From positions 359,306 through 423,305 of the forward strand of contig JAKLJL010000001.1 of assembly GCA_023151185.1 (NCBI GenBank): 64,000 bases of DNA, given 5' to 3'. This DNA comes from Bacteroidota bacterium (GTDB lineage: Bacteria; Bacteroidota; JABWAT01). The stretch's first letter is position 1. Every line of letters begins with the position of its first letter. Below, piece by piece: positions 3,217-13,154 of this stretch. The position numbers were made by a program, and so were the translations under genes. Under the pieces are notes generated by a model that was not told the DNA's origin, did not search any database, and saw nothing but the letters and a program-made list of their open reading frames with translations.

Positions 3217-6453
<3,237 letters not shown>

Positions 6454-7988: not shown

Positions 7989-9244
7989 AACCGGTTGTCC
8001 TTTTGGTTCTCACCCATTTCCTCTTTTTATCAGCATTTTCACAACCCCGGGATCTGGTTAAACTGATTTATGCGGATTCTTTCACCGGATTTCAGATCAA
8101 TGGAGAGCCGGTCAGGGAATTTACCGGAAATGTTCATGTTGAACGGGACGGTGTAAACCTGTACTGCGATAAAATGATTGAATTCGTAAACCGCAGGCTT
8201 CTTGAGGCAAAAGGGAATGTTAAAATTGTCCAGAATGCAGATATTCTGACCGCTGATTTTGGCCGGTACTATCCCGATACCCGGTTTATCACCGTTGAGA
8301 AAAATGTGAAACTGAATTCTGAAGGCAATCTCCTGACCTCTGATTTCGGAAATTTCAACTTCCAGTCCAATCTGGCTGGATTCTGGAGCAGGGTTAAACT
8401 GGTTGACCCCGGAAATAATGAAATTCTTGCCGATTCTCTGGATTATAACCGGAATACCGGTCACAGCAAACTTTTCAGGAACGTCCGGATTTATTCACCG
8501 GCCGATCAGTCGGTTATTACCGGACAGTATGCCGAGAACTACAACACCTCACGGACTGCGTTCATTGAAAAAGAGGCCTTTTTATTCCAACTGCCCCGAA
8601 AACCGGGCGAAGATACACTGATGATCCGGAGTCTTAAAATGGAATCCAACCGGTCTGATTCTGTTAACCGGTATGTGGCCATCGGAAAGGTCAGAATGGT
8701 GCAAGGGGATCTTTCTGCCAGGTCTGATACGATGACCTTTCTGAAAAATGAAGGGAAAATCAGTTTAAGAAGTGAGCCCGCAGTCTGGCATGGAGCCAAC
8801 CAGGTGACAGGAGATTCAATTGATGTCTTACTGGAAGAAAATAAATTAAAAAAACTGGATTGCCTGGGAAGTGCATTTTCTGTTTCCAGAAAAGATTCGG
8901 TGATGAGAAAATATGATCAGTTGCGTGGCCGCCGGATCCAGTATCTGTTTTCGGATAAAAAGCTTGAAACTGTTGTAGTAGATACAACAGCAGAAAGCCT
9001 GTACTACCTGGATCAGGACGGGAAACCCTCAGGAGCCAATTTTATCACCGGGGACCAGATTGTCATCCGGTTTACCGATAATGAAATCGAAGACATCCGG
9101 GTTCGCAGCGGGGTTGAAGGAAAATTTTTTCCGGAACGGCTGGTTGCCGCAGAACCGATTTTACTGAAAAATTTTAAGTGGCTCGGAAGGGAACGGCCGA
9201 CGCCGCAGGAGTTGAGGAATTATGTCAGGTCAGGAATCCGGTAA
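7985..9244 (+). CDS. OstA-like (LptA/LptD N-terminal repeat) protein
   Basis: Signal peptide, repeated jellyroll motifs (GNVHV, GNVKIVQ), C-terminal LKNFKW...RP; lies between lptC and lptB. Confidence 0.8.
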
Positions 9245-9989
9245 CGAAAAACAACCCATGATTTTACGTGGTGAAGACCTGGTTAAGCAATATAAAAAAC
9301 GCCGGGTCGTAAAAGGTGTTTCAGTGAACGTCCGCCAGGGAGAAATTGTCGGGCTTTTAGGTCCGAATGGGGCAGGAAAAACAACCACGTTTTATATGAT
9401 CACCGGTATGGTTAAACCCACTTCTGGCCGGATTTTTATAAATGATCTTGAAGTAACCGATGACCCGATGTTTGTCAGGGCTCAAAAGGGGATCGGGTAT
9501 CTGCCCCAGGAGGCAAGTGTTTTCAGGAAACTTTCAGTTGAAGACAATATTCTGGCGATTCTGGAATTCATGCCGTTGAACAAAGCACAGCGGAAGGAAC
9601 GGGTCGAGGAACTTCTGGAAGATTTCAATATTACCCACATCCGGAAGTCATTGGGTTATATGCTTTCGGGAGGTGAACGGCGCCGGTGTGAAATTGCCCG
9701 GGCCCTGGCAAGCAATCCCAGTTTCATTTTACTGGATGAGCCCTTTGCCGGGGTAGATCCGATTGCGGTTGAGGATATTCAGTCCATTGTAGCCAAACTG
9801 AAAGACCGGGGCATCGGCGTTCTGATCACCGATCACAACGTACATGAAACACTCAGTATTACCGACCGGGCTTACCTTCTTTTTGACGGGTCCATCCTGC
9901 TGCAGGGGACTGCCGAACATCTTGCCCAGGATGAAAATGCCAGAAAGCTGTATCTCGGTGAAAAGTTCACCCTTGAAAGATATAAATAA
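9222..9989 (+). CDS. lptB: LPS export ABC transporter ATP-binding protein
   Basis: [39 protein letters not shown] and ITDHNV motifs; alternative start at 9258. Confidence 0.96.
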
Positions 9990-10045
9990 AGTTTGCATTC
10001 CGGAGTGGAATTTGTTTATTTTTACTCCGCAATAAAACTAAAGCT

Positions 10046-10114
10046 ATGACCCATCAGCCAACATATCAAACCGGCTTCTTCTCCTTTTCCTACTGGTATT
10101 TCTATTGGGCTTAA
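10046..10114 (+). CDS. Putative aromatic-amino-acid leader peptide MTHQPTYQTGFFSFSYWYFYWA
   Basis: 22-codon ORF read directly from the sequence. 8 of the 11 codons from F11 to W21 plus one more give 9 Phe/Tyr/Trp codons in that stretch. Ends 136 nt upstream of DAHP synthase. Absent from the ORF track. Confidence 0.8.
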   Translation: MTHQPTYQTGFFSFSYWYFYWA

Positions 10115-10133
10115 GCCCATATTTTCTTTTTCT
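10105..10133 (+). promoter_or_regulatory. Candidate attenuator hairpin overlapping the end of the leader peptide
   Basis: TGGGC-TTAA-GCCCA followed by TATTTTCTTTTTT. Confidence 0.55.
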
Positions 10134-10250
10134 CCAAAAATCCTTGTTTTGATTTATATTCCGGCCGGAAACGTCCGGATTTGCCCGGATTAAAACTTTT
10201 ATCCGGAAAACCCTGTTTAAAAAGGAAAAATTTTACAAAAGGTACAGATT

Positions 10251-11303
10251 ATGGTTGTCGTAATAGAAAAAAATGCAAGCGAAGAACAGATTCAGCAGGT
10301 TATCGGGTTTTTGAACGGATTCGGATTCGATGTTCACCGGTCATCAGGGGTTAGCCAGACGGTTCTGGGCGCCATTGGCGTGAAGCCTGATTTTGACCAG
10401 CGGGAGGTTCAGCTTTTACCCGGGGTTCAAAAGGTTTTCAGAGTGACAGAACCTTATAAACTCAGCAGCCGGTCATTTAATCCCGAAGGAACAATTCTTG
10501 ATGTTAAAGGGGTAAAAATTGGTGGGCCTGATGTCGTCATGATGGCCGGTCCCTGCAGTGTGGAATCAGAAGAGCAAATTCACCTGGTTGCCAAACATGT
10601 CGCTGAACAGGGTGCTGTAGCCCTCCGGGGCGGTGCTTTCAAACCCCGGTCCTCTCCTTATGCCTTCCAGGGGCTTGGAGAACCGGCACTGAAATGGATG
10701 CGGGAGGCTGCCGATGCCAACGGCCTGATTGTGATCACGGAGGTAATGGACAGCAGCCAGATTGATTTGGTCGGGAAATATGCGGATATTTTTCAGCTTG
10801 GTGCCCGGAATATGCAGAACTATGCCCTGTTAAAGGATATTGGCAGGACCCGGGTGCCGGTAATGCTGAAACGGGGACTTTCGGCAACCATTGAAGAATG
10901 GCTGATGTCGGCAGAGTATATTCTTGCTTCGGGAAATCACAATGTCATGTTGTGTGAACGGGGCATCCGGACTTTTGAAACTGCAACTCGGAATACCATG
11001 GATATTTCGGCCATACCGGTAATTCACAAGAAATCTCATCTGCCTGTGATTGCCGATCCCTCTCATGGGGTTGGAATCCGGGACAAAGTGATTCCGATGG
11101 GGCTTGCCGCCGTTGCTGCCGGTGCAGATGGCTTGATTGTTGAAGTTCACAACTGTCCGGAAAAAGCAAAATCGGATGGGGCCCAGTCTCTGTATTTTGA
11201 ACAATTTACTGAACTTTCCCGCCAGGTTGGGGCCATTGCCCGAGCCATTGACCGGGGAATCCATGTGAATCCCAATAGTTTTATTGAAGATACCCAACAT
11301 TGA
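10251..11303 (+). CDS. aroF: DAHP synthase, type I-beta with N-terminal ACT/ferredoxin-like regulatory domain
   Basis: [26 protein letters not shown] and DPSHG motifs. Confidence 0.95.
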
Positions 11304-11315
11304 AAGGTTTTTCGT

Positions 11316-13154
11316 ATGTGCGGAATTATCGGTTATATCGGTAAGAAAAATGCAATTGACATCGTACTGACCGGATTGAAGCGGATGGAGTACCGGGGAT
11401 ATGACTCCACCGGTGTTGCCCTGCTTCAGGACGGTCGGTTTACGGTAAAAAAACGCCGTGGAAAAGTGGTTGAACTCGAAGAGATCATTGATCTTGGTGA
11501 AATGGCTTCAACCTGCGGACTGGGACATACCCGGTGGGCTACCCACGGACAGCCGAATGATGTCAATGCACACCCGCACATTGATTCCGACGGTCAGGTC
11601 GTGGTTATTCATAACGGAATCATCGAAAATTACGACACTCTTAAAAAAGATCTTCTGGGAAAAGGACACCGGTTCCGGTCAGAAACGGATACTGAAGTCG
11701 TAGCCCATCTCATTGAATCTCTCCATAAAGACCATCCTGAACTTCCCCTGGATGAGGTTGTTGCTGTTATGCTTCACGAAATTACCGGAACCTATGGTCT
11801 GGTTATGATGGCTGCCTGGGACCCAGATAAAATCGTGGTTGCCAGAAAAGGAAGTCCGATGATTTTGGGGATTGGGGATGGTGAGTTTTTTGCTGTTTCT
11901 GATGCTTCTGCAATAATTGAACACACCCGGGATGTTGTCTATCTGAATGACGGCGAAATGGCGGTTCTGACAAGAACCGGATATTCGGTCAGAGATATGA
12001 AAAACAAAGCGCTTGAAGCTGAAATTGACCGGATCACCTATGATCTGGATCAGATAGAAAAAGGTGGATTCCCGCATTTCATGCTGAAAGAGATTTTTGA
12101 ACAGCCCGAGTCCATTTTCAATTCGATGCGGGGACGGATTGATTATGATGCGCTTTCCATTCGTCTTGGCGGAATTTCAACCCATTTGGGCCGGCTGCTC
12201 AGGGCCAGGAGAATTATAATCGCTGCCTGCGGTACTTCCTGGCATGCCGGACTTGTTGGTGAGTATTTGCTTGAAGAATATGCCAAAATTCCGGTCGAGG
12301 TTGAATATGCTTCAGAATTCAGGTACCGGCAGCCCATTATCTACCCGGATGATGTTGTTATTGTGATTTCACAATCGGGTGAAACTGCCGATACGCTTGC
12401 TGCGGCACGGGAGGCTAAATCTAAAGGTGCTCTTGTAGTCGGTATCGTGAATGTGGTTGGGTCAACCATTGCCCGGGAAACTGACTGCGGTATTTACATC
12501 CATGCCGGGCCTGAAATCGGAGTGGCCTCGACAAAGGCCTTTACTGCACAGGTTACCGTTCTGGCCCAGCTTTCTCTGATGCTGGGTGTTTATACCGGGC
12601 TGGATATTACCAAGCGCCGGGCATTTGTTGAAGCCCTCAGAACCATTCCTGATTTAGCCAGACGAACACTTGAACTCAATCCTGATATTGAAACGATCGC
12701 TGAAACTTTCCGGAATTCAACCAATTTTCTGTATCTGGGCCGTGGGTACAACTTCCCGGTTGCACTTGAAGGGGCTCTGAAACTAAAGGAAATCAGCTAC
12801 ATCCATGCAGAAGGATATCCGGCAGCCGAAATGAAGCATGGCCCGATTGCCCTGATTGATGAAAATATGCCGGTTGTCTTTGTAGCAATCCAGGACAGCA
12901 CCTATCACAAGGTTATTTCAAACATCGAAGAAGTAAGAGCCAGAAAAGGCCGGGTAATTGCCATTGCAAATGAAGGAGATGAGAATATTGACCGTCTTGC
13001 TGAATTTGTAATTAAAATTCCGGTGACAATTGAACCGCTTACTCCCTTGTTGACCTCCATCCCGCTTCAGTTGCTTTCTTACCATATTGCTGTCATGAGA
13101 GAGTGCAATGTGGACCAGCCACGAAACCTGGCTAAATCAGTTACAGTTGAATAA
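11316..13154 (+). CDS. glmS: Glutamine-fructose-6-phosphate aminotransferase
   Basis: MCGI start, GHTRWATHG, SQSGETADT and PRNLAKSVTVE. Confidence 0.98.
   Translation: MCGIIGYIGKKNAIDIVLTGLKRMEYRGYDSTGVALLQDGRFTVKKRRGKVVELEEIIDLGEMASTCGLGHTRWATHGQPNDVNAHPHIDSDGQVVVIHNGIIENYDTLKKDLLGKGHRFRSETDTEVVAHLIESLHKDHPELPLDEVVAVMLHEITGTYGLVMMAAWDPDKIVVARKGSPMILGIGDGEFFAVSDASAIIEHTRDVVYLNDGEMAVLTRTGYSVRDMKNKALEAEIDRITYDLDQIEKGGFPHFMLKEIFEQPESIFNSMRGRIDYDALSIRLGGISTHLGRLLRARRIIIAACGTSWHAGLVGEYLLEEYAKIPVEVEYASEFRYRQPIIYPDDVVIVISQSGETADTLAAAREAKSKGALVVGIVNVVGSTIARETDCGIYIHAGPEIGVASTKAFTAQVTVLAQLSLMLGVYTGLDITKRRAFVEALRTIPDLARRTLELNPDIETIAETFRNSTNFLYLGRGYNFPVALEGALKLKEISYIHAEGYPAAEMKHGPIALIDENMPVVFVAIQDSTYHKVISNIEEVRARKGRVIAIANEGDENIDRLAEFVIKIPVTIEPLTPLLTSIPLQLLSYHIAVMRECNVDQPRNLAKSVTVE

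Follow-up and report, generated by a model that had tools for sequence, protein, structure and literature searches.

The stretch of DNA analysed here (the window) comprises 64,000 nucleotides (nt) from the genome of an uncultured Bacteroidota bacterium of the GTDB lineage JABWAT01 (assembly GCA_023151185.1, genome G000 below; contig JAKLJL010000001.1, positions 359,306 to 423,305 of the forward strand). Our subject is a short upstream open reading frame (uORF) located between an lptB-like gene and aroF, the gene of a 3-deoxy-D-arabino-heptulosonate-7-phosphate (DAHP) synthase. The uORF is rich in codons for aromatic amino acids, its stop codon lies within a small hairpin (H1), and it probably encodes a leader peptide through which the supply of aromatic amino acids controls aroF. 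The locus contains the following features, in window positions:

9222 to 9989, forward strand: lptB-like ABC ATPase gene, an open reading frame upstream of the leader (Pfam ABC_tran, 1.1e-36).
9992 to 10023, forward strand: promoter-like motif of the Bacteroidota type, TTTG-N21-TATTTTT, a regular-expression match ending 22 nt before the ATG of the uORF.
10046 to 10114, forward strand: leader open reading frame (the uORF) as called from the sequence, 22 codons, MTHQPTYQTGFFSFSYWYFYWA followed by a stop codon.
10076 to 10108, forward strand: aromatic run of the uORF, codons 11 to 21 (FFSFSYWYFYW).
10106 to 10119, forward strand: hairpin H1, UGGGC-UUAA-GCCCA, 5 base pairs, −7.0 kcal/mol, whose 5' arm includes the Trp-21 codon and whose loop contains the stop codon.
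10120 to 10133, forward strand: U-rich tract TATTTTCTTTTTCT directly after H1, terminator- or pause-like.
10160 to 10179, forward strand: predicted hairpin P1 (UCCGG...CCGGA), −10.3 kcal/mol.
10185 to 10206, forward strand: predicted hairpin H3 (CCGGAU-loop-AUCCGG), −8.0 kcal/mol, ending 44 nt before the aroF ATG.
10251 to 11303, forward strand: aroF, encoding a type I-beta DAHP synthase with an N-terminal ferredoxin-like regulatory domain.
11316 to 13154, forward strand: glmS (Pfam SIS and GATase domains), starting 12 nt past the aroF stop codon.

All elements that a first-pass annotation had described in the sequence were confirmed. The uORF is separated from aroF by 136 nt. It contains 4 Phe, 4 Tyr and 2 Trp codons, as already counted in the first-pass annotation, and nine of these ten are found within the last 12 codons. 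Five consecutive aromatic codons (W17-Y18-F19-Y20-W21) stand directly before the Ala codon and the stop. When short open reading frames in 1233 upstream regions of G000 were scanned for enrichment in 21 amino-acid groups, the uORF, with 8 Phe, Tyr or Trp residues (FYW) in a window of 10 residues (binomial p 3.6e-7), ranked second. It was the sole entry of the FYW group among the 45 most extreme compositions listed, and no other leader peptide was evident among these 45. The uORF thus exceeds what would be expected by chance.

The order and class of the window comprise only five species genomes (G000 to G004). A 22-codon uORF ending in YWA and a stop is present in four of them (G000, G001, G002 and G003), which represent three genera. 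The peptide reads MKNLQ[I/T]PQNYRPSFSTWYFYWA in G001 and G002 and MTFPTSFTTVRFYRNWSSLYWA in G003, and each uORF ends within a hairpin TGGGC-NTAA-GCCC followed by a T-rich tract. The alignment column of the uORF ATG is invariant across the three genera despite a 5' half that cannot be aligned. Between G000 and G001, codons 12 to 22 include 5 identical, 4 synonymous and 2 non-synonymous positions. In genus g1, the order W-Y-F-Y-W precedes the Ala codon and the stop, so that all three amino acids are represented, whereas in the third genus Tyr and Trp are the only aromatic residues close to the uORF end. The idea in the first-pass annotation that one attenuator integrates all three end products is thus plausible for genus g1 but does not extend to the third genus, nor to a part of the second lineage described below, where Phe is absent. 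Each of these four class genomes has a single copy of a 16-base motif, TAYTGGGCNTAAGCCC, which is always located at the aroF leader. In a scan of 401 genomes of the phylum it was otherwise found in 4 of 396 genomes, in unrelated contexts, and the reversed-pattern control likewise gave 4 matches. At two loci of genus g8 (L212 and L213) the palindromic 16-base motif lies in an unrelated region rich in guanine-cytosine palindromes (CCCCGG...CCGGGG, GGGCTTTAGCCC), which possibly constitute a family of repeat elements.

Searches for the uORF in a wider range of relatives had been recommended in the first-pass annotation; the frame recurs within the class as described, and elsewhere such frames occur at the background rate. 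Among aroF homologues of other families and phyla, frames with at least 5 FYW per 10 residues precede the gene at 9 of 104 loci; the control with reverse complements gave 8 of 104. Of the nine positive loci, five belong to the class itself (one record counted twice), and L020 was the starting point for the second lineage. Metagenome contigs yielded no closer relatives, the best AroF identity among 80 loci being 71%, and an aromatic uORF was found in none of the 75 usable metagenome aroF upstream regions versus 3 of 75 in the reverse-complement control.

The locus L020 (genome G017) encodes a DAHP synthase that is 49% identical to that of the window and carries MICRSTTYFTAFSFFFFATWWRN upstream. 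This DAHP synthase paralogue is found in 14 of 31 relatives of G017, 13 of which have readable upstream DNA (L193 to L205). All 13 contain an aromatic-rich frame that ends in W-R-[N/S/H] and a stop codon within a hairpin. The frames are 22 to 44 codons long, with in-frame expansions of FYFT units, and 4 to 12 of their last 20 residues are aromatic. An ATG start is present in 12 of the 13; at L200 the frame is kept (12 FYW in the last 20 amino acids) without an ATG, GTG or TTG start. Two types can be distinguished, one rich in Phe and Tyr with a single Trp (for example ...SKFYFTSFYFTPFYFAGWRN) and one rich in Trp and Tyr without Phe (MITYKPTYCANRYWRRPTWQGCAWRS). The terminal hairpins are TTCGCC-GGTT-GGCGAA or GCTGCGC-TTG-GCGTAGC, and the stem is extended in G017. 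One two-sided compensatory change (UUCGCC/GGCGAA to GUCGCC/GGCGAC) was found, and G-U pairs in the stem argue for pairing at the RNA level over a palindrome in the DNA. An adjacent U tract is missing after most of these hairpins; one of them (G017) was scored as terminator-like. Codons for P-T-Y (GCCAACAUA) are common to G000 and three leaders of the second lineage, a hint that the two leader families may share ancestry.

Hairpin H1 is made of the last three codons of the uORF, TGG-GCT-TAA, plus the next five bases and is followed by the U-rich tract, in agreement with the first-pass annotation; T-rich tracts follow it also in G001 and G003. The stem is invariant in the four genomes, and the variable loop base (T, A or G) is the third base of the Ala codon. 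In a genome-wide comparison, perfect hairpins with a T tract of at least the strength of H1 were found at 245 of 2882 gene 3' ends and in 16 of 2252 coding controls, which makes them about 12 times commoner at gene ends. Taken by itself, the scan of positions 9800 to 10400 for terminator-like sites is not significant (1 found versus 0.8 expected). A second terminator-like site between H1 and aroF was found neither in the terminator scan nor in constrained folds, and lptB has no other terminator-like site before H1. The effect of a translating ribosome on H1 was modelled as a 28-nt mask at 23 positions of the ribosomal aminoacyl (A) site, combined with partition-function folding, for the three leaders G000, G001 and G003. 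In all three, the predicted pair probability of H1 is 0.95 to 1.00 with the A site at codons 1 to 17 and 0.00 to 0.01 from codon 18 onwards.

Further downstream, the CCGG-rich stems that had been noted at about 10157 to 10208 are predicted to form the hairpins P1 and H3. The sequence of P1 is not conserved in G001 and G003. By contrast, in all three genera a hairpin ends 44 to 46 nt before the aroF ATG, as read from the sequences (among them L002 and L004). The stems at this position differ by genus (CCGGAU/AUCCGG, GGUG/CACC and GGUCUG/CAGAUC), and the H3 loop is identical in G000 and G001 (AAAACTTTTA / AAAACUUUUA). In G001 only, our reading of the sequence indicates a U-rich stretch at a distance downstream of H3. 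The minimum-energy structure predicted for the free leader of G000 pairs UCCUUUU (10082 to 10088) with AAAAGGA (10220 to 10226). The same fold pairs the uORF start, UAUGACCCAU (10045 to 10054), with the aroF start, AUGGUUGUCGUA (10251 to 10262); a weaker equivalent is seen in G003 and none was seen in G001. A scan of positions 9000 to 11500 on both strands against Rfam gave only unrelated families as best matches (E 0.7 and 1.7), far below the gathering thresholds.

In each of the three genera, the uORF is directly preceded by a match to TTTG/TTG-N21-TAnnTTT. The distance from the end of the match to the uORF start codon is 22 to 23 nt in G000 and G001. In G003 it is 4 nt, and the mRNA of that genome may therefore be nearly leaderless. 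Between the uORF and aroF no match to the pattern was found in G000, G001 or G003. In G000 the promoter-like pattern occurs in 2.8% of 846 upstream regions versus 0.5% of 586 coding pieces, and the −7 box TAnnTTTG in 13% of the 846 upstream regions versus 2% of the coding pieces; as this enrichment shows, G000 uses the Bacteroidota −7 box. The match would place the uORF within the aroF transcript. A Shine-Dalgarno core motif is present in 37.5% of the regions at −20 to −4, which corresponds to a moderate use of this signal.

A conserved uORF, rich in aromatic codons, lies behind a promoter-like motif and ahead of a DAHP synthase gene, and we therefore propose that its peptide is a leader which senses aromatic amino acids and controls aroF in cis through attenuation. 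We put the probability of this interpretation at roughly 0.6. The best reading of the data is a genuine cis-acting leader peptide of the aroF-glmS unit that reads the supply of aromatic aminoacyl-tRNA. The idea of an aromatic amino-acid sensor in the first-pass annotation thus holds up in outline and in part of its interpretation. The sequence, its conservation and composition and the modelled behavior of H1 are shown directly, and from them we infer that the leader is transcribed, translated and responsive to starvation. To judge from the motif, transcription would start at the Bacteroidota-type promoter just upstream of the uORF. The composition of the uORF and its conservation suggest that the availability of charged aromatic tRNA is read out as the speed at which ribosomes move over the ten Phe, Tyr and Trp codons. 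According to the folding model, H1 would be melted once the A site of a ribosome has reached codon 18. In trpL of Escherichia coli, the 5' arm of a hairpin contains a Trp codon and the hairpin loop contains the stop codon, with a pause-prone tract behind it. H1 is laid out like this 1:2 pause hairpin and may be the element on which the ribosome acts. Fast translation and release would leave bare, pyrimidine-rich RNA around H1, and transcription would end prematurely within the leader of 136 nt. Premature termination would be prevented by a ribosome waiting on the aromatic codons, and RNA polymerase would then reach aroF.

As the terminating agent we tentatively favor the factor Rho, loading on the G-poor RNA that flanks H1. 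We rate it as the most likely candidate while considering it clearly less than an even bet. The gene for Rho is present in the genome, and the best 78-nt window, formed by the 3' part of the uORF and the tract, contains 23 C and 8 G. Intrinsic termination at the U tract of H1, relieved by masking, is less likely owing to the timing problem described below. In tnaC and speFL, a ribosome held at the 3' end of the uORF keeps Rho off the adjacent leader RNA; these leaders sense a free ligand via the nascent peptide and induce downstream genes. They resemble the present leader in the long untranslated spacer before the structural gene and, under the proposed mechanism, in having no need of an antiterminator or an intrinsic terminator. 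They differ in the signal, which would here be hungry codons, and in that a role of Rho is here putative. As a speculation that we rate as improbable, the leader could be a starvation-sensing counterpart of tnaC and speFL in which a split Rho-loading site is made up of the codon run, H1 and the pyrimidine tract. Such a site would consist of two G-poor halves around a small hairpin and would make both the antiterminator and the intrinsic terminator unnecessary. The W-R-N leaders of the second lineage would work on the same principle and would perhaps go back to a common ancestor, at which the shared P-T-Y codons and the position of Trp, always the last aromatic codon inside the terminal hairpin, might hint.

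Several observations weigh against the proposed sensor function. G004, a member of the same family, has a short lptB-aroF spacer without a uORF, and only three independent leader sequences are available in the lineage of the window. Within this lineage no covariation was found for H1, its stem being invariant. In the model, H1 does not respond to a ribosome on the aromatic codons that precede codon 17. Neither masked partition folds nor constrained minimum-energy folds revealed a competitor for either arm of H1; no antiterminator was found, and the defining feature of the classical switch is therefore missing. The folding of the leader, which the first-pass annotation had proposed as a check, supports H1 with a predicted probability of at least 0.95, but the whole leader folds no better than shuffled sequences (z −0.89) and no switch structure was found. 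In its excess of C over G, the leader is ordinary for this genome (82nd percentile among 457 upstream regions; 59th to 69th percentile for the spacer alone), and the skew therefore lends no specific support to the Rho variant. Two RNA runs (X14 and X18) are represented by fragmentary assembled contigs with depths of 2 to 7, from which the start, end and level of a transcript cannot be read. They have no contig over positions 10040 to 10123, and X14 has one contig at 10142 to 10312.

The first-pass annotation had assumed that a stalled ribosome masks the hairpin directly rather than through an antiterminator. H1 and the U tract would then form an intrinsic terminator, and a ribosome stalled on the last aromatic codons would hide the 5' arm of H1, with read-through on starvation. 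Part of this mechanism agrees with our results. H1 with its T tract is terminator-like and overlaps the uORF end, no competing structure was found, and the hairpin is abolished in the model with the A site at codons 18 to 22; in G000 and G001, Tyr, Phe, Tyr and Trp codons are among these. A comparable role of translation speed was suggested by the authors who described a uORF before aroF of Acholeplasma. The starvation-induced read-through itself, however, fails on the geometry of the two machines. The footprint of a ribosome extends about 12 nt 3' of its A-site codon, about 14 nt of nascent RNA are enclosed by RNA polymerase, and release takes place 7 to 9 nt after the stem. With these footprints, the nearest possible A site is about codon 19 while the polymerase is on the U tract (about 10127 to 10133), and no ribosome can at that time already be beyond H1. 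H1 would be hidden by a fast ribosome close behind the polymerase just as by a stalled one, and a starved, lagging ribosome at F11 to Y16 would leave H1 free. Direct masking thus gives either the wrong sign or no regulation. A similar geometry is known from pyrBI and pyrE of Escherichia coli, where the leader reading frame runs into the terminator hairpin and a close ribosome masks the hairpin directly. In these operons the regulated variable is the pausing of the polymerase at low uridine triphosphate, and close coupling is the ON state; the uORF shares this geometry, which for an amino-acid sensor gives the wrong sign. Moreover, aromatic codons 7 to 17 would be useless or harmful under direct masking, and at most loci of the second lineage the hairpin is not directly followed by a U tract. 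We therefore regard direct masking as unlikely.

Somewhat less probable still is a post-transcriptional mechanism, in which a stalled ribosome would free the aroF start from pairing, similar to erm and cat, or would shield the mRNA from nucleases. Such a mechanism would not depend on coupling to RNA polymerase, and all aromatic codons would contribute. The pairings of the free G000 leader fold given above point in this direction, as does the consensus fold of six leaders of the second lineage, in which a pyrimidine stretch of the uORF pairs with the AAGGAG Shine-Dalgarno sequence. Controls speak against the translational variant, however. The uORF pairs with the aroF translation start no better than with the starts of 960 other genes (fractions of controls at least as good of 0.71, 0.44 and 0.46 in the first lineage, and of 0.15 to 0.95 for 13 leaders of the second lineage), and shuffled segments pair about equally well. 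In addition, the modelled accessibility of the aroF start is nearly flat across ribosome positions (0.41 versus 0.39 to 0.51 in G000), and the leaders of G001 and G003 show no uniform trend.

The leader might also contain no sensor at all. H1 would then be the terminator of lptA-lptB or a palindromic operator in an aroF promoter, and the aromatic reading frame would be a by-product of T-rich sequence, which favors Phe and Tyr codons. This explanation can draw on the CATAT-TTT box after H1, which resembles a −7 box, on the lack of another terminator-like site for lptB, and on the invariance of the H1 arms, as expected also of a protein-binding site. The X14 contig starts at 10142, with none over the uORF, which in a low-depth assembled contig is a hint at most, and the background frequency of FYW-rich small frames before other aroF genes is in line with chance. 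A by-product of base composition would, however, hardly keep an ATG exactly 22 codons before the stop in three genera with an unalignable 5' half in between, nor differ mainly by synonymous changes in the 3' half. The promoter-like motif lies upstream of the uORF and has no match downstream of it. The second lineage keeps aromatic frames of 22 to 44 codons with FYFT expansions and G-U pairs in the hairpin, and in both lineages the cognate DAHP synthase gene follows. For these reasons we consider the absence of a sensor the least likely of the explanations, and we return to the aromatic-sensing leader peptide.

Compared with trpL and pheL, the proposed leader of aroF shares a short reading frame rich in codons of the end product in the leader of a biosynthetic gene. 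It differs in that a mutually exclusive pair of antiterminator and terminator was not found and in that three amino acids are represented. Of the features of a classical attenuator, a leader reading frame behind a promoter-like motif, clustered end-product codons and a conserved frame are present; the terminator-like element, H1 with its T tract, is weak and overlaps the uORF stop. A leader peptide before a DAHP synthase gene has a precedent in Corynebacterium glutamicum. There, the aroR leader (Phe-Tyr-Phe) precedes aroF, and transcription was reported to increase when ribosomes stall under Phe limitation (Neshat et al. 2014, as described in PMC11802643 and PMC4046766). Both systems have a short aromatic-codon leader directly before the DAHP synthase gene, whereas aroR belongs to another phylum, encodes an unrelated peptide and is less rich than the present uORF with its 10 aromatic codons including 2 Trp. 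The uORF of the window also differs from aroR in the stop codon within the predicted hairpin and in that no antiterminator was found. Before aroF of Acholeplasma, uORFC-13-1 abuts an apparent intrinsic terminator stem which, as its authors suggest, might be controlled by translation speed (PMC8632094). Two further Phe/Tyr uORF candidates were linked to shikimate genes (PMC6429828). These are likewise bioinformatically defined aromatic uORFs ahead of aroF or shikimate genes; they stem from other lineages, have other sequences and are described as Phe or Phe/Tyr leaders. The present uORF adds Trp, always as the last aromatic codon, and its likeness to aroR and uORFC-13-1, compared by their descriptions, is one of functional layout. 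The first-pass annotation had held that attenuators usually monitor one amino acid and had inferred that this one integrates all three end products; leaders for several amino acids, as well as an aromatic leader before aroF, have already been published. Our literature search revealed no report of an aromatic leader peptide before a DAHP synthase gene in Bacteroidota.

Experimental proof that a leader peptide controls DAHP synthase is known only from Corynebacterium; for a few Firmicutes and Mollicutes there are predictions. In Bacteroidota there are two lineages with Trp, Tyr and Phe codons in lineage-specific proportions, which suggests an isoenzyme-specific tuning of the sensed end products. 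The leader poses a mechanistic puzzle, namely a stop codon inside the terminal hairpin, no antiterminator, and a simple masking model with the wrong timing. If its output is Rho-dependent or otherwise non-classical, the range of wirings for sensors of hungry codons would be broader. The uORF merits annotation, and it marks aroF-glmS as a regulated unit.

The reference in the first-pass annotation to DAHP synthase as the common first step for all three amino acids needs a qualification. G000 contains a second DAHP_synth_1 gene, an I-alpha-like protein of 346 amino acids (family E 1.7e-87; contig C20, L208, 1372 to 2412), and the aroF enzyme is therefore not the sole entry to the pathway. The genome-wide uORF scan flagged no aromatic uORF in the 265-nt upstream region of this second gene. 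G000 also encodes kdsA, and a type II DAHP synthase was not found in the genome. The AroF protein of the window itself matches Pfam DAHP_synth_1 (1.5e-75) and DAHP_snth_FXD (2.3e-18) as well as NCBIfam NF006421 (478.7 bits versus a cut-off of 335). Provided that it functions as a leader, the uORF controls one of two DAHP synthase isoenzymes.

The 12-nt distance between aroF and glmS had been given correctly before, and glmS is probably co-transcribed with aroF. The two genes are neighbors in all five genomes of the class and at seven loci from other families (loci L002 to L017). An lptB-like gene precedes aroF in all five class genomes, and six loci of other families also have lptB upstream of aroF. 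Thus, a gene of the aromatic pathway is repeatedly found beside genes of the cell envelope (lptB and glmS). A few kilobases upstream, at about 5623 to 6429 of the window, lies a kdsA-like gene for 3-deoxy-D-manno-octulosonate (KDO)-8-phosphate synthase, a paralogue of the DAHP synthase family, in the same lipopolysaccharide-related neighborhood as an OstA/LptA-like gene and lptB. At locus L008 (genome G016), the lptB-aroF spacer is over its full length a tandem array of about 25 units of 8 bases, in AACGAAAT and AACGAAAC variants. The sequencing runs that contain the DNA of the window are mostly labelled as activated-sludge and bioreactor metagenomes. The most extreme uORF composition in G000 is a Cys-rich reading frame (VCPCECSCQVCRF...) on contig C11, about 114 to 36 nt upstream of the gene at 634508. 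It precedes a 232-amino-acid protein with a signal-like N terminus and may be due to chance.

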